Assembly: GCA_964361095.1 (NCBI GenBank)
Contig: CAYHZA010000002.1
Coordinates: 49,594-113,593, forward strand
Direction of reading: 5' to 3'
DNA: 64,000 nt
Source of the DNA: an uncultured Candidatus Saccharibacteria bacterium
Lineage (GTDB): Bacteria > Patescibacteriota > Minisyncoccia > UBA6257 > 2-01-FULL-56-20
Part shown: positions 10,321 through 63,773 of the stretch, in pieces
Numbering within the stretch: position 1 is the stretch's first letter
How the letters are laid out: each line of letters starts with the position of its first letter
Made by a program: the position numbers and the translations under genes
Notes under the pieces: model-generated
Database searches by the model: none
What the model was told of the DNA's origin: nothing
The model's input: the letters and a program-made list of their open reading frames with translations, nothing else

Positions 10321-10392
10321 GGGGGTGTAGCTCAACGGCAGAGCATTCGTCTTATACACGAACGGTTGGAGGTTCGAGTCCTCCCGCCCCCA
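10321..10392 (+). tRNA. tRNA with anticodon UAU (tRNA-Ile2-like, TAT)
   Basis: GGGGGTG-TA-GCTC-AACGGCA-GAGC-A-TTCGT-CTTATAC-ACGAA-CGGTT-GGAGG-TTCGAGT-CCTCC-CGCCCCC-A gives a clean cloverleaf. U33, A37 and anticodon TAT are present. No CCA is encoded. Confidence 0.7.
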
Positions 10393-10441
10393 CGATCTTA
10401 ATATGGAAAAGGTAAGGGACGCCTCGGCGGTTTCTGGCCAG

Positions 10442-28137: not shown

Positions 28138-30612
28138 ATGGATAACATTGAAAAACGTGAAATTACCAGCGAGCTCCAAGAGGCGTACATCGACTATGCG
28201 ATGTCGGTCATTGTTTCGCGCGCTCTCCCGGATGTGCGCGACGGTTTGAAGCCCGTGCATCGACGTATCTTGTGGGGTATGTGGGACTCGGGTTCAACTG
28301 CCGACGCGAAGCTTAAAAAATCCGCAAATATTGTTGGTGAGGTAATGGGCAAGTACCATCCTCACGGCGATCTTTCTATCTATGACGCGCTGGTTCGGAT
28401 GGCGCAGGATTTTTCTCTGCGGTATCCCTTGGTGCAAGGTCAGGGAAATTTCGGTTCTGTTGACGGCGACAACGCCGCCGCGATGCGGTACACGGAGGTG
28501 CGTCTTGCGCGCATTGCCGACGAACTTTTGCTTGATATAGAAAAAGAAACGGTTGACTGGCAGCCGAACTACGACGGCATTCGCCTTGAGCCAAAGGTGC
28601 TCACCGCAAAGCTTCCTAATCTTCTCTTGGGCGGGAGCGTGGGAATTGCCGTGGGTATGACGACAAATATTCCTCCGCATAATTTAAGCGAAGTGGCGGA
28701 TGCGATCCTTTATTTGGTGGACAATCCGAAGGCGGGGAACGACGATCTTCTTAAATTTATAAAAGGACCCGACTTTCCCACCGGAGGGATTATTTTCGAT
28801 CGTAAGGCGATCGCGCAGGTATACGAGACTGGCCGGGGCACGATAACCATACGGGCAAAAGCGGAGATAGAAGAACGGCATGGTCGTGAAGGCAGTCGCG
28901 CGAGAGGATTCAATATTGTCGCGACCGAAATTCCTTACCAAGTGAACAAAGCCGAGTTGATCGTGAGGATCGCCGAACTGGTACAAAACAAAAAAATAGA
29001 AGGCATCCATGATTTGCGCGATGAATCCGACAAAGACGGTCTTCGCATCGTTATTGAACTTAAAAATGACGCTCCGCCTCAGAAGATCTTAAATCAGCTT
29101 TACCGCCAAACGGATCTCCAGAAAGATTTCCACGCGAATATGATCGCGTTAGTCGGCGGGATTCAGCCGCAGCTGCTCTCCTTGAAAGATATCCTCGTAT
29201 ATTATCTCGAGCATCGCACGGAGGTGGTGCGTCGGCGCGCGCAATTTGATCTGAAGAAAGCCGAAGAGCGCGCTCATATCTTGGAAGGACTCGTCAAAGC
29301 CCTTTCGGTTATTGATCGCATTATCGCGACGATCAAAAAATCAAAAGATCGCGACGAAGCGCATAAAAATTTAGTGAAGAATTTTAAGCTCAGCGATATT
29401 CAAGCGACGGCAATCCTCGAGATGCGCCTTCAGTCTCTCGCGAATCTTGAGCGGCAGAAAATCGAAGATGAACTCAAGGAAAAACTCGCCTTGATCAAAG
29501 AGTTGAATATTATTTTAAAAAACCCAGCGCGTATTTTAAAGATTATTAAAGATGAAGTGAAAGAATTAAAAGATAACTATGGCGACGAGCGAAAAACAAA
29601 GGTGGTGGCGACGGGGCTTACCGAATTCAAAGACGAGGATTTGATTCCCGAAGAGGAGGCGATCATCGCGCTCTCTTCCGGCGGCTACGTAAAGCGTCTC
29701 GCGCCGGATTCGTTTAAGAGCCAGCGCCGCGGCGGCAAGGGGCTTGTCGGTTCGGATGTTGCCGACGAGGATTTCATTACGCATTTTTTGAGCACAAAGA
29801 CGCACGACCAACTTTTGTTCTTCACGGACAGGGGAAGAGTGTTCCAAATCAAAGCGCACGAGATTCCTGCCGCAAGCCGTACCGCGAAGGGGAAAGCGAT
29901 CCACAACTTTCTCGAGCTTCCCACGAACGAGAACATAAGTGCGATTGTAAATTCTCCGAAGCTTGCTTCCGGAGATAAAAGTTCGGAGTATCTCGTCATG
30001 GTGACCCAAGATGGACTGATCAAAAAAACACCGATCGGCGAATTCCAAAATATTCGACGCTCGGGTATTATCGCCCTGGATCTTAAAAAGAATGATCTCT
30101 TGAAATGGGTCGGCATCTCGCACGGGAAAGACGAGGTGGTGCTCACGACGCGAGGCGGTCAGGCGATCCGATTCAAAGAAACACAGATTCGTTCCATGGG
30201 CCGGAGCGCCGCCGGCGTGCGCGCGATTCGTCTTCGAAGTGGCGATCATGTTGCCGGGTTTGATATAATAAAAGATAAGAAGTCGGAAAAGCAGGAAGAG
30301 CAGCCAAAGGGCGTGAACCGCTTGGTAGTGGTGATGGAAAATGGCTTCGCGAAGCAGACGGCTCTTACGCAGTATAAAGTACAGAATCGCGGCGGTTCCG
30401 GAATCAAGACTGCGAAGATTACGAAGAAAACAGGTTCCATTATTTCGAGCAAGGTAGTGCGCGAAGAAACCGAGATTTTCGCTCTCTCGGCAAAAGGCCA
30501 GGTAATTCGGACGGAACTCTCAAGTGTGCGCATGACGGGTCGCGCCGCGCAGGGTGTGCGGATCATGAATCTTAAGAGCGGTGATCGGCTGGCGGGAATC
30601 GTAATCGTTTAG
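28138..30612 (+). CDS. gyrA: DNA gyrase subunit A
   Basis: 'YAMSVIVSRALPDVRDGLKPVHRRILW', active-site region 'AAAMRYTE', and C-terminal beta-pinwheel repeats. Confidence 0.9.
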   Translation: MDNIEKREITSELQEAYIDYAMSVIVSRALPDVRDGLKPVHRRILWGMWDSGSTADAKLKKSANIVGEVMGKYHPHGDLSIYDALVRMAQDFSLRYPLVQGQGNFGSVDGDNAAAMRYTEVRLARIADELLLDIEKETVDWQPNYDGIRLEPKVLTAKLPNLLLGGSVGIAVGMTTNIPPHNLSEVADAILYLVDNPKAGNDDLLKFIKGPDFPTGGIIFDRKAIAQVYETGRGTITIRAKAEIEERHGREGSRARGFNIVATEIPYQVNKAELIVRIAELVQNKKIEGIHDLRDESDKDGLRIVIELKNDAPPQKILNQLYRQTDLQKDFHANMIALVGGIQPQLLSLKDILVYYLEHRTEVVRRRAQFDLKKAEERAHILEGLVKALSVIDRIIATIKKSKDRDEAHKNLVKNFKLSDIQATAILEMRLQSLANLERQKIEDELKEKLALIKELNIILKNPARILKIIKDEVKELKDNYGDERKTKVVATGLTEFKDEDLIPEEEAIIALSSGGYVKRLAPDSFKSQRRGGKGLVGSDVADEDFITHFLSTKTHDQLLFFTDRGRVFQIKAHEIPAASRTAKGKAIHNFLELPTNENISAIVNSPKLASGDKSSEYLVMVTQDGLIKKTPIGEFQNIRRSGIIALDLKKNDLLKWVGISHGKDEVVLTTRGGQAIRFKETQIRSMGRSAAGVRAIRLRSGDHVAGFDIIKDKKSEKQEEQPKGVNRLVVVMENGFAKQTALTQYKVQNRGGSGIKTAKITKKTGSIISSKVVREETEIFALSAKGQVIRTELSSVRMTGRAAQGVRIMNLKSGDRLAGIVIV

Positions 30613-30638: not shown

Positions 30639-31964
30639 ATGCCAACACTTCCGGATCTCTCGAACATTCCCCGACGGCAGGTATTTATTGTTGGAACATT
30701 TTTCGCCGCCATCATTCTTGGCGTTCTCTTGTGGTTTGGTCTTCGTCCTCCTGCCATCGACCCGAACACACAGGGAGATCTTACGATGTGGGGTGTTCTC
30801 GACGCGAATCAGATGAAAAGTTTTATCGACGAAGTACAGAGGAGTTTACCGGGCATCAAGGTGCAGTATCGAGAAGTTGATAAGGAGAGCTATGATGCAA
30901 CATTAGTGGATGCTTTAGCCGCGGGCGAGGGTCCGGATATTTTTATGGTTTCCGATCGCGATTTGCCCCGACAGATCGGGAAAATCCAGCCCCTCCTTCC
31001 CGAACAATTCGGCATTCCGCGATTGCGGGAGTTTTTCCCGGCGGTGGTAGAGGAGCAGTTCGCGGATAAGGACGGCAAGATATACGGCCTTCCTTTGTAT
31101 CTCGACACGCTTCTCCTGCTCTATAACAAAGAACTTTTTGATCAGGCCGGTATCGTGGGGCCGCCGAAGACGTGGAGCGCGTTTGAAAAAATCGTGCCGA
31201 GTTTACGTTCGGTCGGACAGAACGGAAATATCTTGCAATCGGCGGCGGCGATCGGCGGAACCAAAGAATCCATCGCGACCGCGGTTGATCTTTTAAATCT
31301 TTTAATGATCCAAGGCGGCGCTCCGATGACAAGCTTGGATCGAAGGAGGGCGCTTTTTTCCAATATGACGAGCGAAGGGGGATCAGGTCAGGCCGCTTTT
31401 GATTTTTACACAAAATTTGGCACGACGGCATCGCCGGTTTATACATGGAACGACGCGCAAGGTGACTCCATCGAAAGCTTTACCGCCGGAAAGACCGCGA
31501 TGATTTTTGACTATTGGGAGAGGATATTCGAAATTCAAAAAAAGGCGCCCTTTTTGAAGATGCGTGCTGCTTCCATGCCCCAGCTTTCAAGCACGCAATC
31601 GATAAATTATCCCCATTACTGGGCACTTACGGTATCGCGTCAGAGCCGCAAACAGATTCCGGCATGGAATTTTATTATTAAGGCGACAACCGATTCGACG
31701 CTCGCGTATAATTTTTTCAAAGTTTCTAAACTTCCTCCGGCATTAAACAGTATCATCGCTTCGGTTCCTGCGTCGTCGGAATACTACGTGCCCGTACGAC
31801 AGGCACTCACGGCGCGTTCGTGGTACGAAGTGAGCGGCCGCGAGATAGACAATATTTTTTCTCGCGCCATCTCCCGCGCCGTAACGGGGCAAGCGACTCA
31901 GTCGAAGGCGCTCAAAGAGGCCGAAGATCAAATCTCGGAATTAATGAGGACACGACGACAATAA
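30639..31964 (+). CDS. extracellular solute-binding protein (ABC-type, family 1) with an N-terminal membrane anchor
   Basis: 441 aa with an N-terminal TM then SBP_bac_1-like 'YGLPLYLDTLLLLYNKELFDQAGIVGPPKTWSAF'. No adjacent permease or ATPase. Confidence 0.65.
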   Translation: MPTLPDLSNIPRRQVFIVGTFFAAIILGVLLWFGLRPPAIDPNTQGDLTMWGVLDANQMKSFIDEVQRSLPGIKVQYREVDKESYDATLVDALAAGEGPDIFMVSDRDLPRQIGKIQPLLPEQFGIPRLREFFPAVVEEQFADKDGKIYGLPLYLDTLLLLYNKELFDQAGIVGPPKTWSAFEKIVPSLRSVGQNGNILQSAAAIGGTKESIATAVDLLNLLMIQGGAPMTSLDRRRALFSNMTSEGGSGQAAFDFYTKFGTTASPVYTWNDAQGDSIESFTAGKTAMIFDYWERIFEIQKKAPFLKMRAASMPQLSSTQSINYPHYWALTVSRQSRKQIPAWNFIIKATTDSTLAYNFFKVSKLPPALNSIIASVPASSEYYVPVRQALTARSWYEVSGREIDNIFSRAISRAVTGQATQSKALKEAEDQISELMRTRRQ

Positions 31965-31968
31965 CGCA

Positions 31969-32952
31969 ATGAACCGCCACACGCGATACTTCATTTTTTT
32001 CTTCGCGATTCTTCTCTTCTTTTTTGTTGTGCCGTTTGCGGCAGAGGCCGTGGGCTTTCCCTATTGGGGTACGAATCCCCCGATTCTTCCCTGCGGCTAT
32101 AGCGGTGGGCCTCCCTGTACGGATCTCTGTCAGATGGTTCAGCTAGGACAGAATGTTGTGTTTTTCGGTATGACGCTTGTTGTCTTTGCTCTCGCGCCGA
32201 TATTTATCGCGTGGGGAGGCATTGAGCTCATGATCGGAGCATCTTCTTTGGTGGATATCGGCGGTGGATCAAAAGAAAAAGTAAGTCATGGAAAAAAGAC
32301 GATCAAAAGCGCGATTGTGGGGCTCGTGCTCGCGCTTGGCGCGTTTGTAATCGTAAATACCTTTATAACATTTTTGGGAATATCGATCGGCGGAGCGGGC
32401 GGGTGGGCAAGTTTTCAATGTACCGTTCTCGAGCTTCCTCCGCCTCCCGCGCCCATAGTGCCCCCTGGGGGAATAACACCTCCTCCCGGTGTTTCTCTGG
32501 GAACCGGATGGTCGGGAGCGGTTATCCCTCCGGGAACATTGGATGACGCGACGGCACGGAATCAATTGAGGGCTGCCGGCATTGAGGTGACAAGTTCTAA
32601 CGGTTCTAATAGCAACTGCACGAGTGCGGGTCAGACGAACTGCACAAGCTTGAGCGGTTTGCCGCAATTGGCTGTTGATAACCTTATCGCTTTGAAGAGC
32701 GACTGCAAATGCGCGCTTACTGTAACCGCGGGCACCGAGGCGGGGCACGCAACACACGGCATGGGAAAGAGCATCGTTGACGTGCGCGCGGACAATAAGG
32801 TTACGTCCTATCTTCAGAATGAAATTCGTGCCGCGAATCCACATATTTCGGCGATCCTTCCCGATACGTATTATTCGATAGGCAATGAACGCTATCGTTA
32901 CGAACCCCCCGATAAGCCCGGCGAGGGACCGCACTGGCATGTCGAATTCTGA
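31969..32952 (+). CDS. pilin-like (VirB2/TrbC-like T4SS-pilin fold) N-domain fused to a Pro-rich linker and a C-terminal Cys-containing globular domain
   Basis: The N-terminal 110 aa are paralogous to the three downstream small proteins (TM, 'IAWGGIELMIG', second TM). Then comes 'PPPPAPIVPPGGITPPPG' and about 170 aa ending 'GEGPHWHVEF'. Confidence 0.5.
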   Translation: MNRHTRYFIFFFAILLFFFVVPFAAEAVGFPYWGTNPPILPCGYSGGPPCTDLCQMVQLGQNVVFFGMTLVVFALAPIFIAWGGIELMIGASSLVDIGGGSKEKVSHGKKTIKSAIVGLVLALGAFVIVNTFITFLGISIGGAGGWASFQCTVLELPPPPAPIVPPGGITPPPGVSLGTGWSGAVIPPGTLDDATARNQLRAAGIEVTSSNGSNSNCTSAGQTNCTSLSGLPQLAVDNLIALKSDCKCALTVTAGTEAGHATHGMGKSIVDVRADNKVTSYLQNEIRAANPHISAILPDTYYSIGNERYRYEPPDKPGEGPHWHVEF

Positions 32953-32994
32953 TTCCCCGCGTGGAAGGGCATATGATAGAATATAGATACGATT

Positions 32995-33372
32995 ATGTAT
33001 AAATTATTTTTTACGATTGCCTCAGGAGTTCTTCCTTTCACCTCTCGCGTGTTTGCGAGTAGTTCCAGCGGACCGACTTCCGGCGGACCGGTTGGAGGAG
33101 GTAGTAATACGGAAATTACAATTCCAAACCCCTTAGGAAGCGAAAGTTTTCTCGATATTGCCCAGCGAATAATTGATGCATTATTTCGCATCTCCATTCC
33201 CATCGCGGCGATTATGGTTCTCGTGGGTGGGTTTCAGATCATGACCGCGGGTGGAGATCCAAAAAAAGTTACGAACGGCAGAAACACGCTCATTTACGCC
33301 GCGATCGGTTTCGCGGTGGTTTTGCTCGCGAGCTCGGTTGCCGCGGTTGTTCAGAGTGTGTTAAAACCATAG
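32995..33372 (+). CDS. T4SS-pilin-like small membrane protein (VirB2/TrbC-like; CPR 'T4SS pilin' family)
   Basis: Signal/TM, 'PIAAIMVLVGGFQIMTAGGDPKKVTNGRNTLIYAAIGFAVVLLA'. Paralog 1 of 3. Confidence 0.55.
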   Translation: MYKLFFTIASGVLPFTSRVFASSSSGPTSGGPVGGGSNTEITIPNPLGSESFLDIAQRIIDALFRISIPIAAIMVLVGGFQIMTAGGDPKKVTNGRNTLIYAAIGFAVVLLASSVAAVVQSVLKP

Positions 33373-33378
33373 AAACCT

Positions 33379-33741
33379 ATGAGAGAAAATTTTTTGAAAT
33401 ATTCACCGGAGCTCATCGCTGTTTTATTTGTGCTCTTCACCTTCGCGCGTTTCGTGGGAGCGGCGCCGCTTTTGAATGATGTTACTGATGTAGAGAAACT
33501 CCTCTGCCGGATTTTTGGCTATGTATTCACCATCTTCATAATTTTGAGTTTGATTATGACGCTCTGGGCGGCGTTTCTTTATCTTACCGCCGGAGGCGAG
33601 CCGGAAAAGATAAAAACCGCGGGGAGGACGCTTATGTATGTCGCGGTCGCCGTTGCGGTCGCTTTAATTGCGAGGGGATTCCCGCGGATTATTTTGAGTT
33701 TATTCCCTAGCGGCAATCCTCAGCAGTTGATTGGGTGTTAG
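33379..33741 (+). CDS. T4SS-pilin-like small membrane protein, paralog 2
   Basis: 'IFIILSLIMTLWAAFLYLTAGGEPEKIKTAGRTLMYVAVAVAVALIA'. Confidence 0.55.
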   Translation: MRENFLKYSPELIAVLFVLFTFARFVGAAPLLNDVTDVEKLLCRIFGYVFTIFIILSLIMTLWAAFLYLTAGGEPEKIKTAGRTLMYVAVAVAVALIARGFPRIILSLFPSGNPQQLIGC

Positions 33742-33808
33742 CGTTTTTTATGGAATATCGTATAATGAAGCCAAGCTTAAAAGGTCGAAATTATAACTTT
33801 TTTGAAGC

Positions 33809-34201
33809 ATGTATACTATGAAAAAACGACTCATTCAAATTGCCGGTCCGGTTATCGCAACAATGATCGGGCTTTCACCGGTTTTATCGAGCGCGCAAAC
33901 GCAAGACGTACCTCAGGCTCCTATTACCGATGTGCGTGGTGTTTTTGACTTTCTCTGTGGAATATTCGGATTGTTTTTCACGCTCTTTATTATCGCCTCG
34001 ATTATTTTGGTGCTTTGGGCGGCATTTAAGTATTTGACCGCAGGTGGAGATCCGGAAAAGGTAAAGAGCGCAAACCATTCGTTAATTTATGCCGCGGTAG
34101 CGGTTGTGGTGGCGCTTTTGTCTCGTGGATTTCCATTTATCATCAACTCCCTTTTCTCGGGAGGCGGTGGAGGCGGTGGTCTGACGAGTGCGTGTTCTTA
34201 A
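33809..34201 (+). CDS. T4SS-pilin-like small membrane protein, paralog 3, Gly-rich C-terminal tail
   Basis: 'LFIIASIILVLWAAFKYLTAGGDPEKVKSANHSLIYAAVAVVVALLS...GGGGGGGLTSACS'. Confidence 0.55.
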   Translation: MYTMKKRLIQIAGPVIATMIGLSPVLSSAQTQDVPQAPITDVRGVFDFLCGIFGLFFTLFIIASIILVLWAAFKYLTAGGDPEKVKSANHSLIYAAVAVVVALLSRGFPFIINSLFSGGGGGGGLTSACS

Positions 34202-34304
34202 ATTTATTTTAGGTTTTTGACAAAGAAAAAAGACCCTCGGGAGATGTTCTTCCCGGGGGTCTTTTGCTTGACCCTTTTACATTACTCCACAAGGAGACGC
34301 CGGG

Positions 34305-35570
34305 TCATGAGCTTCTCCTCATTGAGGTTTGAGAGGGGTTGTCTCCCAAGAGATCGTCGCGGAGTCCGCGGATCTCCACATCTTCGGGTCCCAGGTTCAA
34401 AATAGAAAACTCAGGACCTATATCCTTCCCGTTTTCCGGAAAGTCGATGTAGTCGGTGCCCTTCGCACCTCTTATTCTTATGGTCGCGTTGGGCTTAACT
34501 CCTCCTTCCTCGCTTACTTTTACAAAGAACAAATGGCTTCCCCCGTTGAAGCGCAGGCACTCGCCGGCGCGCACGGTGAAAAGAATTTCCGGACGCATTG
34601 ATATATCCGTGTCTTCGGAATCGTCGCAGTTTCGCTTCTCCGAATCTTCCAAGGTTACTGTCGGATGCGCTCTCCGGTCTCGGAGTACGTCAGACATCAT
34701 CAGAGGAGATTCTCCAAAAGAAGCATTTTCTTCTGGAGCTTCGAGTGAGACTATCGCAGTAATGGGTACATCACCCAACGGACAAATGCGGAATTCACTA
34801 AGAGGAATTCCGACACGTGTTTCTCGAGCTGTTCTTCCGGGTTTTTCTTCCCAGAGAGTATCGTGCGGACCCACGTATCTTTTCCGCCCGTTCCAATACC
34901 ACTCGACGTATCCCACTCGCGGCTCCACCTTGATTTTAAGGTAAGGGCGCGCATTGGGATGAGATGCATCGTGGTAGAGAAGCGATATTGTGCCACTACA
35001 CGTGAAGGGAGAAACATTGATTGTCTTTGTTTCGTTCACGGCAATCAAGGTGTTCGTTTCTCCTGTGGGCCACTTTTCGAGATCGCGTCCTCTCCACTCG
35101 AGCTTCACCCACTCGGGAATGATTGTGCCGCCGAGCGCCGCATAGCCCAGAAGAGCTATGACGCACGCGACGAACGCAATCTTTCCCCAGCTGAAGTTCC
35201 AGCTTATGACACCTCTCTTTTCTTTCCCGTCCTCCGCCTTTCCCTCTTCGGCAAGGAGCTTTGCGCGCCTATATCGAAAGAGTATCGTGCCGACGAAGAG
35301 GAAAAGAATAATCCCACCGAACAAAAATCCCAAGACCCAAGAGAGCACATTGTATCTCCAAACAAAGAAGATGATGCTTATCGCTCCCGCGATAAGAAAA
35401 AAAATCATCCCTTTTGACGTCCCCGCTGGTTTCGCCTTTTGCTGTGGTTTGGCAGTACTCTGCTGTTGGGTTTTGCTCTGACGTTGAATGACGCGATATA
35501 TCCACGTCACGGAGAACATGATGATTGTCACCGAAATGACAATCCCCGTAATCCACATGAAATTATTCAC
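34305..35570 (-). CDS. hypothetical polytopic membrane protein with a large extracytoplasmic domain
   Basis: 421 aa with multiple TM helices. Its start overlaps the stop of the upstream SPFH gene (ATGA), suggesting an operon. Confidence 0.5.
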   Translation of the reverse strand: MNNFMWITGIVISVTIIMFSVTWIYRVIQRQSKTQQQSTAKPQQKAKPAGTSKGMIFFLIAGAISIIFFVWRYNVLSWVLGFLFGGIILFLFVGTILFRYRRAKLLAEEGKAEDGKEKRGVISWNFSWGKIAFVACVIALLGYAALGGTIIPEWVKLEWRGRDLEKWPTGETNTLIAVNETKTINVSPFTCSGTISLLYHDASHPNARPYLKIKVEPRVGYVEWYWNGRKRYVGPHDTLWEEKPGRTARETRVGIPLSEFRICPLGDVPITAIVSLEAPEENASFGESPLMMSDVLRDRRAHPTVTLEDSEKRNCDDSEDTDISMRPEILFTVRAGECLRFNGGSHLFFVKVSEEGGVKPNATIRIRGAKGTDYIDFPENGKDIGPEFSILNLGPEDVEIRGLRDDLLGDNPSQTSMRRSS

Positions 35571-36586
35571 GATTTGTTTCCTCCAAGGAGAGACTTCAGG
35601 ATGTCACCGATAGGAGATGAAACAAGAACGGTGTTCCCCGCGCCTGCGGCTGTTTTTTCAAGTGCCTCGGCGGCGAGGTTCTCTTGCTCCTGTCCCGGTT
35701 TCCAGATTACATCTCTGCGCTTACGTTCCGCATCGGCCTTGAGCTGCATCGCCTCGGCTATTCCCTCGGCTTCGATGATGGTTCGTCTTTTTTCTTGTTT
35801 AGTCTTGAATTCGAGAGTCGCGGCTTCTTCGTGTTCTTTGGCAAGTTTGCCCGAGAGCGCATAGTCCCGCACCTCGAGTTTGACCACCTCGACGCCGTAA
35901 TCTCTTTTGAATTCATCGAAGATCGCTGCGAGAGACGGATTCGCGGCGCTGATGTCCCCTTTCTGGGTTTCATCATAGCTGTTGGATTTGACGTAGTCTC
36001 GTATGATCGGCTGGGTTCGAAGGAGAACTGCGTCAAGCCATCGGTGTACCTTGAAAAGCGCCTTGTGGGGATTCACGATGCGAATCGTGAGGACATATTT
36101 TACGTCTACTTGAAGCAGGTCTGATGTTTCGGCACCCGTTAATACGTCCGTGTACGGGGTGTGCTTCACGTAAACATGCCGCAACATCTCGTTGTGATAT
36201 TCGTCCACGTCTTGGAGTATGCCCCCTACCTCTTTCTTTTTTGTGGTGACCCACGTGAAACGGTAAGCGTACACTTCATGGAATGGAGGAAAACCAATCC
36301 ATCTGATGTGTTCGAGCCATCCCCCAAAGAGATGATGCTTCAATTTAGTGGTCAGTGTTGATGGGGAGCTTGTGCATACAACTTCCCCATCTTTATCGAG
36401 CTCGAATCCCTGGTAGTTCATGATGGCCCTCAAGAACTTGCCGTTCTTGAGGATTGCTCTCGCGCTCCCTTCCTGGACTGTTGTCCAGAACATGTGAACG
36501 CTTGCGAGTGCCGCGATGAGCAATGCCGAACCGTAGAGAAGAACGATCATGGTGACCGCAACAACTACTACAATAGCGATGAACAT
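35567..36586 (-). CDS. SPFH/band-7 (stomatin/HflK-C-like) domain membrane protein
   Basis: N-terminal TM, band-7 core, and a C-terminal coiled coil 'EFKTKQEKRRTIIEAEGIAEAMQLKADAERKRRD'. Confidence 0.65.
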   Translation of the reverse strand: MFIAIVVVVAVTMIVLLYGSALLIAALASVHMFWTTVQEGSARAILKNGKFLRAIMNYQGFELDKDGEVVCTSSPSTLTTKLKHHLFGGWLEHIRWIGFPPFHEVYAYRFTWVTTKKKEVGGILQDVDEYHNEMLRHVYVKHTPYTDVLTGAETSDLLQVDVKYVLTIRIVNPHKALFKVHRWLDAVLLRTQPIIRDYVKSNSYDETQKGDISAANPSLAAIFDEFKRDYGVEVVKLEVRDYALSGKLAKEHEEAATLEFKTKQEKRRTIIEAEGIAEAMQLKADAERKRRDVIWKPGQEQENLAAEALEKTAAGAGNTVLVSSPIGDILKSLLGGNKS

Positions 36587-44816: not shown

Positions 44817-46937
44817 TTATGAAAGCCCTTCTTCGGGGTTGTCTATATAGACTTCGCGCGGTTTCGCGCCTTCGCCCGGACCGATAACGTTTCGAGCTTC
44901 CATGATATCAAGAAGTCGGGCGGCCCGCGCGTATCCAACTCTGAGTCTTCTTTGGAGAAGTGAAGCGGAGGCTTTCTTCGCCTCGACAACTACGCGAACG
45001 GCTTCATCATAGATCTCATCGTCGTCATCTTCAAGCGCTTGGTCAAAGATACTGCCGCCAGCCGCTCCGGAAGATTCTCCTGCTCCGGCAAACCCCTCGG
45101 TGCCCTCTTCTTCGGTCATTTCGATGGGATTATTTTCTCTCACGAAATCCGCCACCGCGTGTATCTCTTCTTCGGTAATGTAAGCGCCCTGGATGCGCTT
45201 TGGCTTTGAGAGCTCGGAAGAGATAAAGAGCAGATCGCCGCCGCCCAAAAGTTTTTCCGCGCCTCCGGTATCAAGAATGGTTCGGGAGTCGATCTGGCTC
45301 GCCACTTGAAGCGCGATGCGGCTTGTGATGTTCGCTTTGATGAGTCCGGTAATAATTTCAACCGACGGACGTTGGGTTGAAAGGACAAGATGGAGGCCGG
45401 TGGCGCGCGCCATCTGCGCGAGGCGCACAATTGAACCTTCCACTTCGCGGCCATAGGAGGTCATAAGATCGGCAAGTTCGTCTACGACAATCAAGATATA
45501 CGGTAACGGTTCATCTTTCCCGCCGTTTGTGTTGTAGCTCTTGATATCTCGGCTTCCCGCCTTAAGGAGAACGTCGTATCGTCGATCCATTTCTTTGAGC
45601 GCCCACCGAAAAACATTGATGGCTTTTTTGCTCTCAATAATTACGGGTGAGACGAGATGGGGAATATGTTCATAAATAGAAAGCTCAACGCGTTTCGGAT
45701 CGATCAGAATAAGTTTCAGTGTGTCGGGAGAGTTTTTATAGAGAAGAGAAAGAATAATAGAGTGGATCATAACGCTCTTTCCGCTTCCTGTTGAGCCCGC
45801 AACCAAAAGATGCGGCATGCGTTCGATATCGGCAAAAATTGGATCGCCGTTTACATCCCTGCCCAACGTAAATCCAAGGGGACCTGATTTTTGGAAATCC
45901 TGATAGCTCATCAAGCTCCCGAGGCGAACGAGCGCCGCGGTTTTATTCGGGACCTCGATGCCCACGAGGGACTTTCCCGGGATAGGAGCCTCGATGCGGA
46001 TAGGATGCGCCGCGAGCGCGAGGGAGATGTCTTGGTGCAAGGCCATGATGCGCGAAAGCTTTACTCCTTCGGCGGGCTTTAACGTATAGCGTGTTACTTT
46101 TGGCCCGATATTAATTTCTCCCATTTCGACCGCGATGCCGAAACTTTCAAGAGTTCGCCTGATGATGTTCGCGTTTGCGCGCAGATCGCCCGTTGTCGGT
46201 TTTTCAACCGTTGATTTTAAGAGCGAGAGGGGAGGAGGAACATAATTCCTAAACTTTCTGATGGACGGCTTTTTCATTTTTTCCGGAGCATTTTCCGATC
46301 CGTCGCTTACCTTGAGGTGCTCTTCTCCTGTTACGGCTGTTCCTTCTTTCTCTTTTGGCTTTTCTTTTAGGTCATTAAGGATTACGGTTTCAACGTGGCC
46401 TTCGCCGGTCGTAACCGGAACTTCAATCGGCTTTTCCTTTCTTTGGGGCAGCCGGATTTTCAAAGGCGCGTCCAGCGTAATAAGTCCGGCGATAAAAAGG
46501 ATAACTATATTAATAATAACGGCGGCTGTTTGACCGAAAGGAACTCGCAAGGATCCGAAAAGAAGGCCAAGCCAGCCTCCGTGGGTTGGCGCGAAGAGTT
46601 CGGTGAGACCGAGGATCGAAAGAAGGAGAAGCAATGCTCCGAAAAAAGCCACGCCCATAGTTATCTCTCGTTCCGAGAAGAGGAATACACCCGCGACGAT
46701 AAAAAGCGAAAGCGGGAGCGCGAGGTATCCCCACCCGAGAACAACCGAAAGCATTTTATAAACAAATCCTCCGAGGGGACCCGCGTATTCAAGGTTTGCG
46801 AGAATAAGGACAATCGATACGCCAATAAGCCCGATTGCCCAGATGCTTTTTTTTGTATCGGGTTTTAGGCGGTAAGACGTGCTCGTTTCCGGGGTGCCGT
46901 TCCGTTTGTGTTTCTTGCTCATGAGGTTCGTATCCAT
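44817..46937 (-). CDS. ftsK: DNA translocase FtsK/SpoIIIE
   Basis: N-terminal TMs, motor domain 'HLLVAGSTGSGKSVMIHSIILSLL' and 'ILIVVDELADLM', and a C-terminal gamma-like winged-helix domain. Confidence 0.9.
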   Translation of the reverse strand: MDTNLMSKKHKRNGTPETSTSYRLKPDTKKSIWAIGLIGVSIVLILANLEYAGPLGGFVYKMLSVVLGWGYLALPLSLFIVAGVFLFSEREITMGVAFFGALLLLLSILGLTELFAPTHGGWLGLLFGSLRVPFGQTAAVIINIVILFIAGLITLDAPLKIRLPQRKEKPIEVPVTTGEGHVETVILNDLKEKPKEKEGTAVTGEEHLKVSDGSENAPEKMKKPSIRKFRNYVPPPLSLLKSTVEKPTTGDLRANANIIRRTLESFGIAVEMGEINIGPKVTRYTLKPAEGVKLSRIMALHQDISLALAAHPIRIEAPIPGKSLVGIEVPNKTAALVRLGSLMSYQDFQKSGPLGFTLGRDVNGDPIFADIERMPHLLVAGSTGSGKSVMIHSIILSLLYKNSPDTLKLILIDPKRVELSIYEHIPHLVSPVIIESKKAINVFRWALKEMDRRYDVLLKAGSRDIKSYNTNGGKDEPLPYILIVVDELADLMTSYGREVEGSIVRLAQMARATGLHLVLSTQRPSVEIITGLIKANITSRIALQVASQIDSRTILDTGGAEKLLGGGDLLFISSELSKPKRIQGAYITEEEIHAVADFVRENNPIEMTEEEGTEGFAGAGESSGAAGGSIFDQALEDDDDEIYDEAVRVVVEAKKASASLLQRRLRVGYARAARLLDIMEARNVIGPGEGAKPREVYIDNPEEGLS

Positions 46938-57868: not shown

Positions 57869-60800
57869 ATGAGTAAATTCAGTACGAAATTTTTGGTAGG
57901 AACACTCGCTGTGATTACGATCATGGGAGTGTTTCCTTACGCTCCGGCCGCTCAAGCGCAGTCAACGTCTGATCTTCAGGCGCAGATTGCCGCTCTCCTT
58001 GCTCAAATCACCGCATTGCAAGCGCAATTGAACATGAATACGACTACGCCAAACACTTCCTTTACCCGCAACCTCACTGTGGGCAGTAAGGGAGCTGACG
58101 TAACCGCTCTCCAGCAGATTTTGATCAATGGTGGCTACTTGAAAATTACGACGGCAACTGCCTACTTTGGTTCTTTGACCAAAGCGGCTTTGGCCGCGTG
58201 GCAGAGCGCGAATGGAATCTCTCCGGCGGTTGGCTACTTCGGCCCTATAAGCCGAGCGGCTATCGGAGGATCAGTAGTAGTTACTCCGGGTACGCCTCCG
58301 GGTCCTCCAGTTGTTGTTCCTGGTTCCGGCTTGAGAGTTAGTCTTTCAAGCAGTAACCCCGCGACCGGCTCTTTGATCTCATCGACCGGTTCAGCGGCGG
58401 CGCGAGTTCCAGTTTTATCCGTGAATCTCACGGCCGGCAGTGCCGGTGGAGTAACGGTAAACGATTTGAAGTTCACGAAAGCAGGCGTTTTGTCTGACAC
58501 CTCGATCTCTTCCGCGTATCTCGTGGAGAGCGGCAAGGTGATTGGGCAGTACAGTTCGCTCTCGGGAGGTGTCATCACTTTTACGGGAATGAACTTGAGC
58601 GTAAACGCCGGTCAGACGAGAACGGTAACCCTGGCTATTGATCCGGCAACGGGTCTTTTGGCAGGAAACACCGTCTCCTTCACGATTGCGAATGCCGCCG
58701 ACGTAGTTGCGGTTGATAATACAAACGCGACCGCGGCTATTTCCGGCATCTTCCCCGTGAGCGGGAACATCTTCACGGTTACCACGGTTTCAAACCCGAG
58801 TATCGCCTCTTTGACGATTTCTTCGTCTTCGGTCGGTACTTCTATCTACGCGGGAACCCAGAATGTCTTGGTTTCGCAGTGGACGTTAACCGGCGCAAGT
58901 AGTCCCGTGAACCTTAGCTCTCTTAACTTTAAGGTAGTTGGTTCCGCGAATAAGAATGACATTAAGAATGTCAAACTCTTCATTAACGGAACGCAGGTTG
59001 GCCCGACGTTGGCGCAGGTTGCTGGCGACGGAAGCGCCTACTTTGACCTCACGTCAAGTCCGGCGAAGATCAATACAGGAAGCGGCAACATGCAGGTCTA
59101 CGCGGATGTCACGGGTTCTCCGAGCTTTAACTTTCAGTTTGAGCTCTTGAATACCTATGACGTCTACGCGATCGACACGCAATACAATGTTCCGGTTTCT
59201 ATAACGATCACGGGCGGTTCCGGCGTGCAGATCACGATTCTCCAAGGAGCTCTTACGGTCTCCCTCGCGAGCGATACTCCGACGAGTAACGTCGCAAAGG
59301 GCGGATCAGGATCCGCTTTGGCGAAATTCACGATCTACGCGGCGGGCGAGCCGGTAAAAGTGAAGTTCTTAACCTTCCGGTTGGATTTCACGGGTACCAC
59401 AACCACGCTTTCAAGCATGGTCAAGAATATGGTCATGGTTGATGACGCGGGTAATCAGGTTGGTACTACGATTAACACGCCTCCTACATCCAATAGTTGC
59501 GATGTAAGCGGCACGGGAACAACGGCCGGATATAATACCGCTGGTACACAGTACACGGATTGTTTCGGCACGAGCTCCTCGAACATCAACTACATTATTC
59601 CGGCGAACACGACTCGAGTTTTGACCCTTCGGTCAGACATTCAGTCGACAGCCGGTTTCTCAACCATCACCGCGAATTTGCTTGCGAGCACCAGCAACTT
59701 GCAGGGTCAAACCTCAAGTCAGTTGGCTTCAAGCGGTTCGGTGACCGGCGCGGCGCTTACCCTCGCGGGGAGCTCCTTAACGGCTTCATTGAACAGCGGC
59801 GTTGGTGCGCAGACGGTTTCGAAGGGCGCGACGAATGTAAGAATCGGATCGTACTCGCTTACCGCTTCTACGGCGGAAGGCGTGAACTTAAACACGATTA
59901 CGATTTTGACCTCGGCAAGCTCATCGAACTTCCAGAACCTCAAACTTAAGGATGGTACTACCCAGATCGGTATTACACAGCCCACGCTTTCTAATAGCGC
60001 GAGCTATACCTTCTCGGGTAACATCAATGTTGCGGCGGGTCAGACAAAGATCATAGATATGTACGCCGATGTGCTCTCGGGCACGGTTGCGGCGACATAT
60101 ACCGCGGTAACGAGCATCAGCTCCTGCTCCGGTTCCGGTTCAATGACCTTTACCTCGGTAACCTGCGGCGCAGTAACCGGCCAAAGCTTGGTGGTTGCCG
60201 GTCAGGCGACTATCGCCGTAACGGCGGACAACTCGCTTGCTCCGGTTGGCACGCAGATCGTGATGGGTGGAACGGGCATCTCGTTGGCGGCTTTCCGCTT
60301 TACGGAAAACACCAACATTGAAGATGTGAAGGTCACCGACCTTAATATCTTCGATCAAGTTGCCTCAACAACTACATCAAAGTCCGGGTTTACGAACTTA
60401 GGGATTTGGAATGGCAGCACGCTTCTTGCGACGACTGGCGCCGCGAGCACATCTGCTTCAAGCTCCAATCCTGGTTCTGGTTACTTCTACCAGTTCCACT
60501 TCGCTAGCCCACTTATCGTTCCGAAGGCCGGCTCGATTTCATTGGTCTTGAAGGGCGACGTGTCTTCGTACACCTCAAGCGGTGCGACGGATAACACGAC
60601 GCATGTCTTTAAGATCTCGACCTCGACCGACAGCGTGAACGATACGGTAGCCGAAACGGTTGTGGCGCTCGGCTCAACCTCAAACGCGACTTCAGCGGTT
60701 ACGCTTTCTTCTGCGACCGGCAATACTATGACGGTATTGAGGACTCGCGCGAGAGTGACGGCTGCTGCAATTGGTTTGACATCGGCGCGCTCAAAAGGAA

Positions 60801-61282
60801 CGAATGACGATATTGGAACCTTAACCTTCGCGGCTGATTCGGCCGGGGCGGTTTCGTTAAACACTATCGTTATCACCTTCAGCGGCACAGCTCCTTCGTC
60901 CTCGAGTTTCTTGGCCAATGTTGATCTCTTGGATCAAAACGGCAACTCGGTGATGAATACATCTGGTGTCGCGAGTAGCACGTCCGCCGCGTGTAGTGGC
61001 GCGAATACTTGTACGAAGACGTACAACTTCGGCAACACGACAGCCGGTTGGACGATATCCGGAGGCAGTTCATACACCTTTAAGATTAGGGTGAATAACA
61101 GCCTTACGGGTACCTTTGCCGCTGGGACTGGTGTGTCTGCTGGTCTCTCCGCGACGATTAATGCTGCTACCGATGTACGGTATACCGACGGTCTCGATTC
61201 GTCAGCGACGTCTAATGTGTCGTTGCCGTCGAACGAGATACCGATTAATGTCAATTCGGTATCCTACGTATCCGGTACATAG
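57869..61282 (+). CDS. large secreted surface protein with a peptidoglycan-binding domain and long Ser/Thr-rich repeat region
   Basis: N-terminal signal/TM, coiled coil 'LQAQIAALLAQITALQAQL', PG_binding_1-like 'LTVGSKGADVTALQQILINGGYL...LTKAALAAWQSANGI', then about 1000 aa of low-complexity S/T/G/A-rich repeats. Confidence 0.6.
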   Translation: MSKFSTKFLVGTLAVITIMGVFPYAPAAQAQSTSDLQAQIAALLAQITALQAQLNMNTTTPNTSFTRNLTVGSKGADVTALQQILINGGYLKITTATAYFGSLTKAALAAWQSANGISPAVGYFGPISRAAIGGSVVVTPGTPPGPPVVVPGSGLRVSLSSSNPATGSLISSTGSAAARVPVLSVNLTAGSAGGVTVNDLKFTKAGVLSDTSISSAYLVESGKVIGQYSSLSGGVITFTGMNLSVNAGQTRTVTLAIDPATGLLAGNTVSFTIANAADVVAVDNTNATAAISGIFPVSGNIFTVTTVSNPSIASLTISSSSVGTSIYAGTQNVLVSQWTLTGASSPVNLSSLNFKVVGSANKNDIKNVKLFINGTQVGPTLAQVAGDGSAYFDLTSSPAKINTGSGNMQVYADVTGSPSFNFQFELLNTYDVYAIDTQYNVPVSITITGGSGVQITILQGALTVSLASDTPTSNVAKGGSGSALAKFTIYAAGEPVKVKFLTFRLDFTGTTTTLSSMVKNMVMVDDAGNQVGTTINTPPTSNSCDVSGTGTTAGYNTAGTQYTDCFGTSSSNINYIIPANTTRVLTLRSDIQSTAGFSTITANLLASTSNLQGQTSSQLASSGSVTGAALTLAGSSLTASLNSGVGAQTVSKGATNVRIGSYSLTASTAEGVNLNTITILTSASSSNFQNLKLKDGTTQIGITQPTLSNSASYTFSGNINVAAGQTKIIDMYADVLSGTVAATYTAVTSISSCSGSGSMTFTSVTCGAVTGQSLVVAGQATIAVTADNSLAPVGTQIVMGGTGISLAAFRFTENTNIEDVKVTDLNIFDQVASTTTSKSGFTNLGIWNGSTLLATTGAASTSASSSNPGSGYFYQFHFASPLIVPKAGSISLVLKGDVSSYTSSGATDNTTHVFKISTSTDSVNDTVAETVVALGSTSNATSAVTLSSATGNTMTVLRTRARVTAAAIGLTSARSKGTNDDIGTLTFAADSAGAVSLNTIVITFSGTAPSSSSFLANVDLLDQNGNSVMNTSGVASSTSAACSGANTCTKTYNFGNTTAGWTISGGSSYTFKIRVNNSLTGTFAAGTGVSAGLSATINAATDVRYTDGLDSSATSNVSLPSNEIPINVNSVSYVSGT

Positions 61283-61409: not shown

Positions 61410-63773
61410 ATGACTTCAAAGACGCTTCTTGCGCTTATTACGTTTTTACTTTTTGCCGCGATAATCGGCACGCCGCTTTTTTATCTTCGGACAAACGTAT
61501 ATCCCCAGGTTCTTCCTAAAACGGGGTATTTCCAGATCGTTGTTGAGATTATGTTCGCGCTCTGGCTGTATCTTGTATTGCTCGACAAGAAATATCGCCC
61601 CAAGCTTACGCCGCTTACCGTTTCTCTTTTTGTTTTTTTAGGCGTCCTTTTTTTAACGGCGCTTACGGGCGTCGATTTCTCGAAAAGCTTATGGTCGCTC
61701 CAAGGGCGGGCGATCGGGATCTTCGCATTCCTGCATTTCGGCGCGCTCTTTCTGGTCGTTGCCTCGCTGAAGCGGGAGCTCGCGTGGCAAAAGCTTTGGT
61801 ATGCCTCGCTTGCGACGAGCATCGTTGTGTGCGTTATCGGTTTTATCCAGCTTAAAATTCCCACCATTCTTTTTCCGACGGAGGGCAGTATCGGCGGCCG
61901 TCCCGGATCAACGTTCGGAAACCCGACCTTTATGGCGGGGTATCTGCTTTTTAACGCCTTTATCGCGGGATGGTTGATCGTGGAAGAGTGGCGCCGCGGT
62001 ATTCGCGGTGATCAAAAAACGAGGCGGCGTGCGGGGTCTCCGTCTTTTATCTTTCTTATCACCGCGTTCCTTGTTACCGCTCTTGGTCTTTTGGTTGCTC
62101 AAACAAGAGGTACGTTTGCCGGAGTCGGGCTTGGATTTTTGGGGCTCATGATCTATGGGAGTTTGAACGGCTGGAGAGAGAAAAAAATACAGCGGATTTC
62201 AGTCGCTTTGCTTATTATTCTTTTTATGTTTGGCGGATTTTTCTTCCTGACGAGAGGAAGCGGCATATGGGCTTCAGTCCCGCTTTTGAACAGGCTTCAA
62301 AATGTTTCGTTCTCATCTCCTGATTTTTTGCCGCGCCTGGTGGCGCTTAAGGCCGCGTGGAGCGGTTTTATCGAGCGGCCGGTTTTCGGGTGGGGATGGG
62401 AAAATTTTAATATTGTATTCAATAAATTTTACGATCCGAAGGTACTCACGATAAGTTACGGGGAAACTCGCTTTGATAAGCCGCACAACGTTGTTTTTGA
62501 ATACTTGGTGAGCGGCGGCATAACCCTTCTCCTCGCCTATCTCGCCCTTATTGCTTCCGCGATCTACGAAGTTTTTTTCGTAAGACGATGGGCGAAAGAA
62601 GAAAAAGATCGCGGCGCGGCGCCGTGGATTGTCGCGCTTATTATCGCCTACATCGTGCACGATTTTTTTGTGTTCGATACCCTGGGACCGCTTCTTATGT
62701 TTTTTCTTATCCTTGGATGGCTCGAGGGATCTTACGTGGATGCACGCCAAGCGGCGCGTACTACTCCGCGCGAAGAGAAAAAAAATACTTACGTGCGAGA
62801 ACAAGGAGTTTTAAAGCATGGCATAGGTTACGGATTGCTATGCGCCGCGCTTATTATGGCGTATATGGTGAACGTACGCGCGCTTTCCGCGGGATACTAC
62901 CAAGCGCTTGGATTTGTGACGACCGGTAAGAACCCATTGCAGGGGATTCATTTTTTTGAAAAAGCGGTCAGCATCAGAGAGCCGTATCAATGGAATATTG
63001 AGCGTGATTTCGCGACGGTAACTTCCGAAGCGTATTTTTATAATCCGGGAAAGATTTCCCGCGATGTGGCATTCCGTGGTTTGGCGCTTATGGAGAAAGT
63101 TGCCGCGGAGCACCCGCTCGATGCCTATAATCATTATGCGTTGGTTGATATGTATAACCAGGTTTTCAATCCGGACGACGAAACAATTCTTACTCTTCCC
63201 GCGGCGGAAAAAGAAAGAATTTTAAAAGAAGAATTTGCGCTTTTGGATAAAGCGGAAAAAGAAGCCGCGATTGCCCTTACGTTAAGCCCGAATCGCCAGG
63301 AGGTGTATTTTTCTCTCTCGAAGACGAAGACATTGCGCGGCGATTATGCCGGAGCCCTCAAGATTTTGGAAAAAACCATAGCGTTGAATCCCGAAGTTCC
63401 CGACGCGCATTTTTACTACGGCTTAGTTGCCTTCGCGAGCGACAAGCTGCAGCTGGGCTATGTTGAAGTTAAGAAGGCGATCGCGCTGGGTCGGAAATGG
63501 AAAAAATACCAGGAACCCCGGGTTGTCGCGGGTTATTTTGCCGACGCCGGGTACCTCGATGAAGCGATTGAGCTCTATAAAACCTCGCTTTCCATGGAGC
63601 CCGGAGAGCTGGAAACGAAAATTAAGCTTGGAGTTGCCTATTATTACGGTAACCAACGCGCCCTAGCGAAGCAGTATCTTACGGAAGTCGCCGCCGCCGT
63701 TGATCTCTCGCGTAGCATCGGATATGCGAGTATAAAGCCGATCCTTATGGATCTAGGAATTCCAGTAGAATGA
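61410..63773 (+). CDS. O-antigen ligase-like (Wzy_C) polytopic membrane protein fused to C-terminal TPR repeats
   Basis: About 12 TM helices, 'FGWGWENFNIVFNKFYDPKVLTISYGETRFDKPHNVVFEYLVSGGI' (O-antigen ligase/PglL-like loop), and a C-terminal 300 aa of TPR-like repeats. Confidence 0.7.
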   Translation: MTSKTLLALITFLLFAAIIGTPLFYLRTNVYPQVLPKTGYFQIVVEIMFALWLYLVLLDKKYRPKLTPLTVSLFVFLGVLFLTALTGVDFSKSLWSLQGRAIGIFAFLHFGALFLVVASLKRELAWQKLWYASLATSIVVCVIGFIQLKIPTILFPTEGSIGGRPGSTFGNPTFMAGYLLFNAFIAGWLIVEEWRRGIRGDQKTRRRAGSPSFIFLITAFLVTALGLLVAQTRGTFAGVGLGFLGLMIYGSLNGWREKKIQRISVALLIILFMFGGFFFLTRGSGIWASVPLLNRLQNVSFSSPDFLPRLVALKAAWSGFIERPVFGWGWENFNIVFNKFYDPKVLTISYGETRFDKPHNVVFEYLVSGGITLLLAYLALIASAIYEVFFVRRWAKEEKDRGAAPWIVALIIAYIVHDFFVFDTLGPLLMFFLILGWLEGSYVDARQAARTTPREEKKNTYVREQGVLKHGIGYGLLCAALIMAYMVNVRALSAGYYQALGFVTTGKNPLQGIHFFEKAVSIREPYQWNIERDFATVTSEAYFYNPGKISRDVAFRGLALMEKVAAEHPLDAYNHYALVDMYNQVFNPDDETILTLPAAEKERILKEEFALLDKAEKEAAIALTLSPNRQEVYFSLSKTKTLRGDYAGALKILEKTIALNPEVPDAHFYYGLVAFASDKLQLGYVEVKKAIALGRKWKKYQEPRVVAGYFADAGYLDEAIELYKTSLSMEPGELETKIKLGVAYYYGNQRALAKQYLTEVAAAVDLSRSIGYASIKPILMDLGIPVE

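Follow-up and report, generated by a model that had tools for sequence, protein, structure and literature searches.

What are four consecutive genes for pilin-like proteins doing downstream of a gyrase gene, with no secretion machinery beside them? This question is raised by a window (the whole 64-kb stretch of DNA analyzed here) from the chromosome of a groundwater Patescibacterium, a member of the candidate phyla radiation (CPR). The same region is present in assemblies from Hainich groundwater well H51. Downstream of gyrA (28138-30612), and like it on the + strand, lie a gene for a membrane-anchored solute-binding protein (SBP, 441 aa, 30639-31964) and open reading frames (ORFs) coding for 327 (31969-32952), 125 (32995-33372), 120 (33379-33741) and 130 aa (33809-34201), with intergenic gaps of 4, 42, 6 and 67 nt from the SBP gene onward. 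The SBP gene and the four ORFs stand where an initial annotation of the sequence had placed them. That annotation read the four ORFs as VirB2/TrbC-like pilins of a type IV secretion system (T4SS). We conclude that the locus is probably the pilin set of a Patescibacteria-type T4SS with its ATPase and channel genes located elsewhere, and that the 327-aa protein carries a putative tethered wall peptidase. In the following, we refer to the 327-aa protein as class A, to the 125-aa protein as class B, and to the 120- and 130-aa proteins as copies 1 and 2 of class C.

The assignment as pilins was borne out for all four proteins. Each exceeds the gathering score of the Pfam family T4SS_pilin (PF18895, 26.6 bits), class A with 27.2 bits, class B with 48.4 bits, and class C with 29.3 bits (copy 1) and 30.6 bits (copy 2), at E values between 4e-6 and 1e-12. 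Four adjacent matches above this threshold cannot be chance. The relation to TrbC/VirB2 (PF04956, gathering score 27.9 bits) is weaker: class B matches this family below threshold (21.1 bits, E 3.6e-4), and none of the four proteins reaches the gathering score. Sub-threshold matches were also returned by all four proteins for NF045849, the NCBIfam model of a pilin-like family (Mbov_0395) from a mycoplasma integrative conjugative element; class C copy 2 scores 30.1 bits against a cutoff of 40. Searched with a hidden Markov model built from these and related pilins, the window and its flanks, translated in six frames, yielded exactly these four ORFs. The class A protein is identical to an NCBI entry named "MAG: pilin [Patescibacteria group bacterium]". 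For class C copy 2, the gene caller used on an identical contig starts at the second ATG (33818), which gives a protein of 127 aa.

A signal segment followed by a two-helix hairpin, in line with the two-TM pilin hairpin of the initial annotation, is seen in the hydropathy profile of each protein: an N-terminal signal-type segment with an A-x-A-like site precedes two hydrophobic helices of about 19 residues. In class A, the predicted Sec signal peptide comprises aa 1-27 (...FAAEA|VGF; 31969-32049, +), with a hydropathy peak at aa 7-25 and an A-x-A cleavage site suggested by the sequence. The following VirB2-like hairpin (aa ~50-135; 32116-32373, +) covers the Pfam match (aa 67-132) and the basic loop GGGSKEKVSHGKK. 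An AlphaFold 2 (AF2) model of class A (pLDDT 78) places the hairpin helices at residues 53-93 and 102-135, around hydrophobic segments 63-81 and 115-133. Short basic loops also connect the helices of the small proteins (TAGGDPKKV, TAGGEPEKI and TAGGDPEKV). The loop motif TAGGDP(E/K)K(V/I), initially ascribed to all four proteins, therefore describes the small ones, one of them with GGEP, but not class A, which reads GGGSKEKV after an insertion of eight residues. Sequence identity is 62% between the two class C proteins, 37% between class B and either of them, and 22-27% between class A and the others.

VirB2 from Agrobacterium, TrbC from RP4 and TraA from F are likewise small proteins with long signal peptides and two hydrophobic helices that are connected by a short basic loop. 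The window proteins differ from these in that the PF04956 match is sub-threshold and limited to class B, in that the host is a monoderm, in that nothing points to head-to-tail cyclization or acetylation, and in that no VirB5-type tip protein was found. Both class C pilins of the window contain one cysteine before the first hydrophobic helix (Cys43 and Cys50, respectively) and one in the C-terminal tail (Cys120, which is the last residue, and Cys129). This pair could form an N-to-C disulfide staple, reminiscent of the cyclization of TrbC and VirB2; the cysteines are absent from the class C copies of the related contig L017, so such a staple is not universal. The 130-aa protein ends in a run of seven glycines.

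We turned to the question of how the four proteins relate to each other and to homologues in other genomes. The order gyrA-SBP-A-B-C(n) is kept in five genomes, which are the window and those represented by contigs L016 to L019. L017, with a GyrA that is 70% identical, reads gyrA-SBP-A-fusion-B-C-C-C; L019, from Candidatus Liptonbacteria and with a GyrA that is 66% identical, reads gyrA-SBP-A-...-B-C-C-C; L016 and L018 contain SBP-A-B-C and SBP-A-B-C-C. In BLAST comparisons, the scores within one class between genomes exceed those between classes within one genome. The class B protein, for example, reaches 98 bits with its counterpart in L016 and 85 bits with that in L019, as opposed to 48-49 bits with the class C proteins of its own genome. 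Class B orthologues are encoded at L016 2047-2496 (44% identity), L019 12267-12626 and L017 7914-8315, and class C orthologues in L016, L017, L018 and L019. Class C alone has been duplicated independently, to two copies in the window and to three each in L017 and L019. The array of four paralogues in the initial annotation thus contains four PF18895 proteins as described, but by these comparisons they fall into three old orthologous pilin classes and are not four loose paralogues. The orthologue of the class A gene in L018 (716-2098), a contig labeled "uncultured Candidatus Saccharibacteria", is split over three frames (154, 196 and 118 aa) and is either a pseudogene or the product of an assembly frameshift.

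This class structure also bears on the idea that the array serves antigenic diversification. Only the lineage-specific duplicates of class C fit this idea; the split into A, B and C is old and conserved across genomes. We infer from this conservation that the classes divide the labor between them, and that division of labor together with variation of one class fits the data better than general antigenic variation. In Liptonbacteria, the domain that forms the C-terminal part of class A is a membrane-anchored protein with its own gene within the array. This pattern of fusion and fission ties the domain functionally to the pilins.

Where, then, is the secretion system that these pilins would serve? 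As had been stated initially, neither VirB4 nor VirB6 nor VirD4 is encoded next to the array; none was found in the window or in the 10 kb past either end. The ten largest ORFs of the window code for housekeeping proteins, including H+-PPase, FtsH, PNPase, RecA, FtsK and ClpB, and when 39 further ORFs were scanned, the 25 top-ranking Pfam families out of 36 did not include any of T4SS. The ftsK gene (44817-46937) was considered as a possible source of a TcpA-type coupling protein; this candidate was ruled out because the protein contains the alpha and gamma domains of a chromosomal translocase. Pilin arrays at a distance from virB4 are common. A survey of Patescibacteria detected VirB4 in 2417 of 3035 assemblies; of 1948 assemblies, only 1135 have pilin genes close to virB4, whereas in the other approximately 40% they are located away from it (PMC12102498).

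More distant relatives of class A provide the connection that is missing from the window itself. In four distinct contigs, homologues of the fusion protein directly adjoin a gene for a VirB4-like ATPase (602-612 aa; PF19044/PF12846). Their neighbors further include a TraC-like protein (PF26593), a PrgI/VirB3 protein (PF12666) and a roughly 800-aa protein. The cluster adjoins yidC, rnpA and dnaA, which is the origin-proximal T4SS location described for Patescibacteria (PMC12102498). On a fifth contig (L020), the fusion homologue is directly followed by a fusion of pilin and lytic transglycosylase (SLT) domain, and a VirD4-like protein is encoded 5 kb away. Five contigs in all thus connect the fusion family with virB4 or VirD4; a scan of GTDB genomes with the family returned two loci. 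Because its relatives adjoin a CPR cluster of VirB4, PrgI and TraC-like genes, we tie the fusion family to type IV secretion.

The neighborhood of the array also allows a reading without type IV secretion, in which the SBP would cooperate with the small membrane proteins to take up or sense molecules from the host. The SBP is clearly recognizable (PF13416, E 8.1e-24, 85.3 bits; PF01547, E 1.3e-19, 71.8 bits), its stop codon lies 4 nt ahead of the first pilin gene, the order of SBP and pilin genes recurs in five genomes, and no T4SS gene is nearby. No ABC (ATP-binding cassette) permease or ATPase was found among the window ORFs scanned, that is, the ten largest ORFs and the top 25 of 36 families for the 39 others; hence, we call this SBP an orphan. 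On the other hand, gyrA belongs to the same conserved block, and the synteny may reflect inherited gene order instead of function. Among the more remote homologues of the fusion, none is next to an SBP gene; they are located in virB4 clusters instead. To our knowledge, two-helix hairpins do not serve as transporter cores. Taken together, we consider an uptake device of this kind very improbable. The SBP is most simply explained as an unrelated uptake receptor, co-oriented and syntenic with the pilin genes in five genomes but with no more than a possible role in the pilin system. Genes for proteins of 416-457 aa that flank the fusion gene in the virB4-adjacent loci were considered as possible kin of the SBP, but no relation was found by BLAST or hhalign.

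Tandem arrays of this kind are known from Patescibacteria. In the S. epibionticum T4SS locus (SEML1_0006-0019), Wang et al. identified in 2023 several consecutive genes for predicted pilins that are essential (PMC10633639). According to a 2025 review, this array is essential and consists of six divergent VirB2-like pilins, and a T4SS of Gram-positive type might form pili (PMC12857230). Quinonero-Coronel et al. described in 2025 a total of 441 arrays, each with 2-11 pilin genes whose identity averages 25% and reaches at most 54%, and proposed an adaptation to different hosts (PMC12102498). The VirB2-like pilin array of Patescibacteria has thus already been published, and the present locus is a further example. 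It resembles the published arrays as a tandem of divergent PF18895 genes (22-62% identity) remote from virB4. In contrast to them, it is embedded in a gyrA-SBP block and not in a T4SS cluster, it comprises three classes, and its first member is fused to an enzyme-like domain.

Based on these observations, we can outline how the four proteins might work as part of a T4SS derived from the monoderm MPF-FATA class. All four proteins would be exported by Sec, with removal of their signal peptides. Profile, hydropathy and model agree on a VirB2/TrbC architecture, such that the pilins would reside in the membrane as two-helix hairpins with the short basic loop inside and, as we assume, both ends outside. 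By analogy with other systems, a VirB4 ATPase encoded elsewhere may extract and polymerize the pilins into a pilus or stalk that touches the host bacterium. Class B is a conserved single-copy pilin, and class C, which varies mainly at its exposed N- and C-terminal ends, may be the major host-facing subunit. Class A would place a disulfide-stabilized domain with conserved His, Asp and Glu residues on a Pro-rich tether, where it could open the wall of the symbiont itself or that of its host. In this way, class A may supply the function that VirB1-type hydrolases perform in other systems.

Several observations speak against this outline. We know of no pilus of this type having been observed in any Patescibacterium. 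In tblastn searches, VirB4, VirD4, PrgI, TraC-like and VirB6-sized CPR queries gave no match in the window or in the 10 kb on either side. A Foldseek search of the PDB with the full-length class A model matched no solved conjugative pilin. The matches that this model did produce were to histidine kinases and BAR domains (E > 0.03), which we attribute to the geometry of a hairpin combined with an alpha/beta domain; a kinase-like or ATP-binding function of the protein was dismissed, because the domain is exported and bears disulfides.

A different interpretation of the hairpins is that they do not polymerize at all, but form membrane parts of a channel or stalk, or serve as anchors that hold extracellular enzymes at the T4SS site. 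Pili are generally absent from Gram-positive T4SSs (PMC10633639; PMC12102498), and no filament has been observed here. Moreover, the same hairpin is attached to at least three extracellular modules, namely, the C-terminal domain of class A (115 of 139 representatives of the family), the SLT domain of a 326-aa protein from L020 (4482-5462) and a 601-aa protein, encoded at the edge of L004 (1-101), that shows a faint match to dockerin. In this respect, the PF18895 hairpin resembles an all-purpose carrier of surface domains. Against a mere anchor speak the three conserved classes of short hairpins free of fusions, with their basic loops and lineage-specific duplications, which resemble structural subunits. 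The pilin array is also essential in S. epibionticum (PMC12857230). Furthermore, C-terminal additions are compatible with a pilin that exposes its C-terminus to the outside. The C-terminus of F-type pilins does face outward. For these reasons, we regard unpolymerized hairpins as unlikely and continue with polymerized pilins as the preferred interpretation.

The C-terminal 142 aa of class A (aa 186-327; 32524-32949, +) had not been described in the initial annotation. This conserved domain is separated from the hairpin by a Pro-rich linker (aa ~155-185, LPPPPAPIVPPGGITPPPG; 32431-32523, +) that is modeled with pLDDT < 50 at residues 163-180. Modeled alone by AF2, the domain reaches a pLDDT of 92.5 and a pTM of 0.87. 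When 1.84 billion proteins were searched with a profile of nine homologues, 2,376 cluster representatives passed a cutoff of E <= 1e-3, and 1,583 passed one of E <= 1e-10. Conservation and domain partners were counted in the best 139 representatives of this family. Cys217, Glu257, His260, Asp271 and His322 are invariant in this set, and Cys225, Cys246, Cys248, His263 and His324 (His or Asp) are conserved in more than 90% of its members. The N-terminal PF18895 hairpin is present in 115 of these proteins; 13 match PF04956 (E <= 0.01), and two contain SLT as a separate module. No Pfam match to SLT/GH23 or CHAP occurs in class A itself.

The company that this domain keeps suggests a role in the cell wall. 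Its actinobacterial branch is large (2,507 matches at E <= 1). In Streptomyces, the domain follows either GH25 and two PG_binding_1 repeats or two PG_binding_1 repeats alone, and a protein of the latter type adjoins a paralogue with a YkuD L,D-transpeptidase domain in the same slot. From these architectures, it follows that the domain sits where the catalytic modules of cell-wall proteins sit. The family also occurs in a springtail (Folsomia candida P0054 and P0058), a rotifer (Rotaria P0283) and a fungus (Humicola P0258), presumably as a result of horizontal transfer from Actinobacteria.

The conserved residues provide a more specific clue. The motif of the actinobacterial branch, I-T-G-G-T-E-A-G-H ... 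S-H-x-x-G-x-K-x-D ... H-W-D, can be compared with that of E. coli MepK, I-S-G-Y-R-S ... S-Y-H-T-K-G-Q-A-M-D ... H-I-D. Judged by sequence, the order of the actinobacterial motifs and the H-x6-D spacing correspond to the pattern of LAS peptidases. Motif order and the placement of strands and loops in the domain model also fit LAS, apart from a longer spacing in the window protein. Like the LAS/M15 enzymes (the DD-carboxypeptidase from S. albus with structure 1LBU, VanX, VanY/LdcB and MepK; PF08291), the domain is modeled as a small alpha/beta sandwich, in which a strand (I-T-G-G-T-E, compare S-G-Y-R) is followed by H-x6/7-D and by a C-terminal strand with H-x-H/D. The association with PG_binding_1 is also found in 1LBU. 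A Foldseek search of the viral models in BFVD returned as its top match an entry annotated as Sonic hedgehog (E 4.2e-3, probability 1.0, TM-score 0.41), and several of the top 33 entries are annotated as "Peptidase M15A C-terminal" or as DD-carboxypeptidase. In the PDB, the VanY-like LdcB appears at ranks 4, 5, 11 and 17 (E 0.3-0.7, TM-score 0.33-0.39).

Not all data are in line with such an assignment. The domain lies below every sequence and profile threshold tested: no usable match was found in Pfam, NCBIfam, PHROG, PDB sequences or phage genomes, and the M15 profiles PF08291, PF05951, PF01427, PF02557 and PF13539 did not match the window domain. One of 59 family members gave a weak match to PF08291 (E 0.03). 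No signal, local or global, was obtained when the domain profile was aligned by hhalign with single MepK, DdpX and CPR M23 sequences, although single-sequence targets make this a weak test. All Foldseek matches of the domain have E values above 1e-3 and TM-scores of 0.3-0.4, and ATP-binding (CA) domains of histidine kinases match similarly. In the window protein, seven residues separate His263 and Asp271 ahead of His322-Trp-His324, which is one more than the canonical LAS spacing of x3-6. In addition to this longer spacing in the CPR branch, the domain differs from LAS/M15 enzymes by an extra invariant Glu-x-x-His ahead of the H...D motif and by two conserved pairs of cysteines. An attempt to bridge the family to 1LBU through the Streptomyces proteins with PG_binding_1 was abandoned, as only the PG-binding repeats aligned.

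Could the domain be something other than a hydrolase, such as a binding module with cell wall, a glycan or a metal as its ligand, or the head of an adhesin presented to the host? The lack of a profile match or a significant fold match to any peptidase family would be explained by this possibility. A further binding module is conceivable C-terminal to PG_binding_1 repeats, and in the springtail homologue P0054 the residue corresponding to His322 is Gln. Nevertheless, catalytic metal sites typically show what is seen here, a constellation of Glu, His, His, Asp and His that persists in 139 representatives although their identity is only about 30%. The domain also occupies the slot of YkuD or SLT catalytic domains in sister proteins, and its best fold matches are enriched for enzymes with the DD-peptidase fold. 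These arguments make a pure binding or adhesin function rather improbable. We lean toward the interpretation that the C-terminal domain is a divergent LAS-like metallopeptidase acting on peptidoglycan.

For most Patescibacteria genomes, the 2025 survey identified no wall hydrolase of the VirB1 type (PMC12102498). VirB1-type hydrolases, which include VirB1 with an SLT domain and PrgK and TraG/TrsG with SLT and CHAP domains, open the wall locally for a T4SS, and the role that we propose for class A is the same by analogy. Genes for the class A domain adjoin virB4 in several CPR genomes, and at one locus the neighbor is a pilin-SLT fusion. It differs from the VirB1-type enzymes in fold and residues, with neither SLT nor GH nor CHAP, and class A is anchored by a pilin hairpin, whereas VirB1-type proteins have a single transmembrane helix or are free in the periplasm. 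Tentatively, and with considerable doubt, we suggest that the domain represents an unrecognized and highly divergent LAS branch which, mounted on a VirB2-like pilin, gives a pilin-tethered or pilus-displayed wall-cutting enzyme. This enzyme could be the "missing VirB1" of the CPR T4SS, with the PF18895 hairpin as a display module for extracellular enzymes. Since the C-terminus of the pilin would face outward, a breach of the host wall at the contact site is possible.

Downstream of the array, an intrinsic terminator hairpin with flanking A- and T-runs is predicted at 34228-34265 from folding energy and sequence. This bidirectional element has a minimum free energy of -28.4 kcal/mol (z = -6.1), and none of 200 shuffled sequences was equally stable. 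It separates the direction of gyrA-SBP-pilin transcription from a convergent gene for a membrane protein of 421 aa. This protein (34305-35570, -) has multiple transmembrane segments and no Pfam match, and its gene overlaps by 4 nt with an upstream SPFH/Band-7 gene (35567-36586, -). The two may form an NfeD-like partner pair; BLAST showed no conservation of the pair in the syntenic contig L017.

Further features were noted in the window and beyond its right end. A LAGLIDADG homing-endonuclease ORF (147 aa, 447-890, -; PF00961, E 2e-7) is located in the low-GC first 2 kb (GC 0.379), where neither rRNA nor intron RNA was detected with Rfam. At 10321-10393 (+), a tRNA-Ile gene has the anticodon TAT (UAU). 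Bacteria normally read AUA by a lysidine-modified CAU tRNA, and the UAU anticodon is unusual. Toward the right end, a protein of 1137 aa (57869-61282, +) with an N-terminal PG_binding_1 domain as its sole recognizable part is followed by a 787-aa protein (61410-63773, +) with Wzy_C (O-antigen ligase-like) and TPR domains; both are large surface or cell-wall proteins. About 5-10 kb past the right end of the window, contig L006 (16852-22364) encodes a serine recombinase of the large type (497 aa) and the first genes, PilM-like and PilO-like, of an operon for a type IV pilus, which represents a second, different filament system near the pilin array.

While the pilin array itself is known, the fusion of a pilin with an enzyme-like domain and the three-class structure are, to a modest extent, new. 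Neither of these features is mentioned in the literature searched, and the gyrA-SBP block is not mentioned in PMC10633639 or PMC12102498. The existence of three conserved classes favors a heteromeric assembly over mere antigenic variation. The recurring fusion of pilin and putative enzyme, in a family of 2,376 representatives that often adjoins virB4, is a testable candidate for the device that passes the apparatus through the wall of the symbiont or of its host. Since the same domain is abundant in cell-wall proteins of Streptomyces, a biochemical assignment of its function would annotate thousands of proteins.

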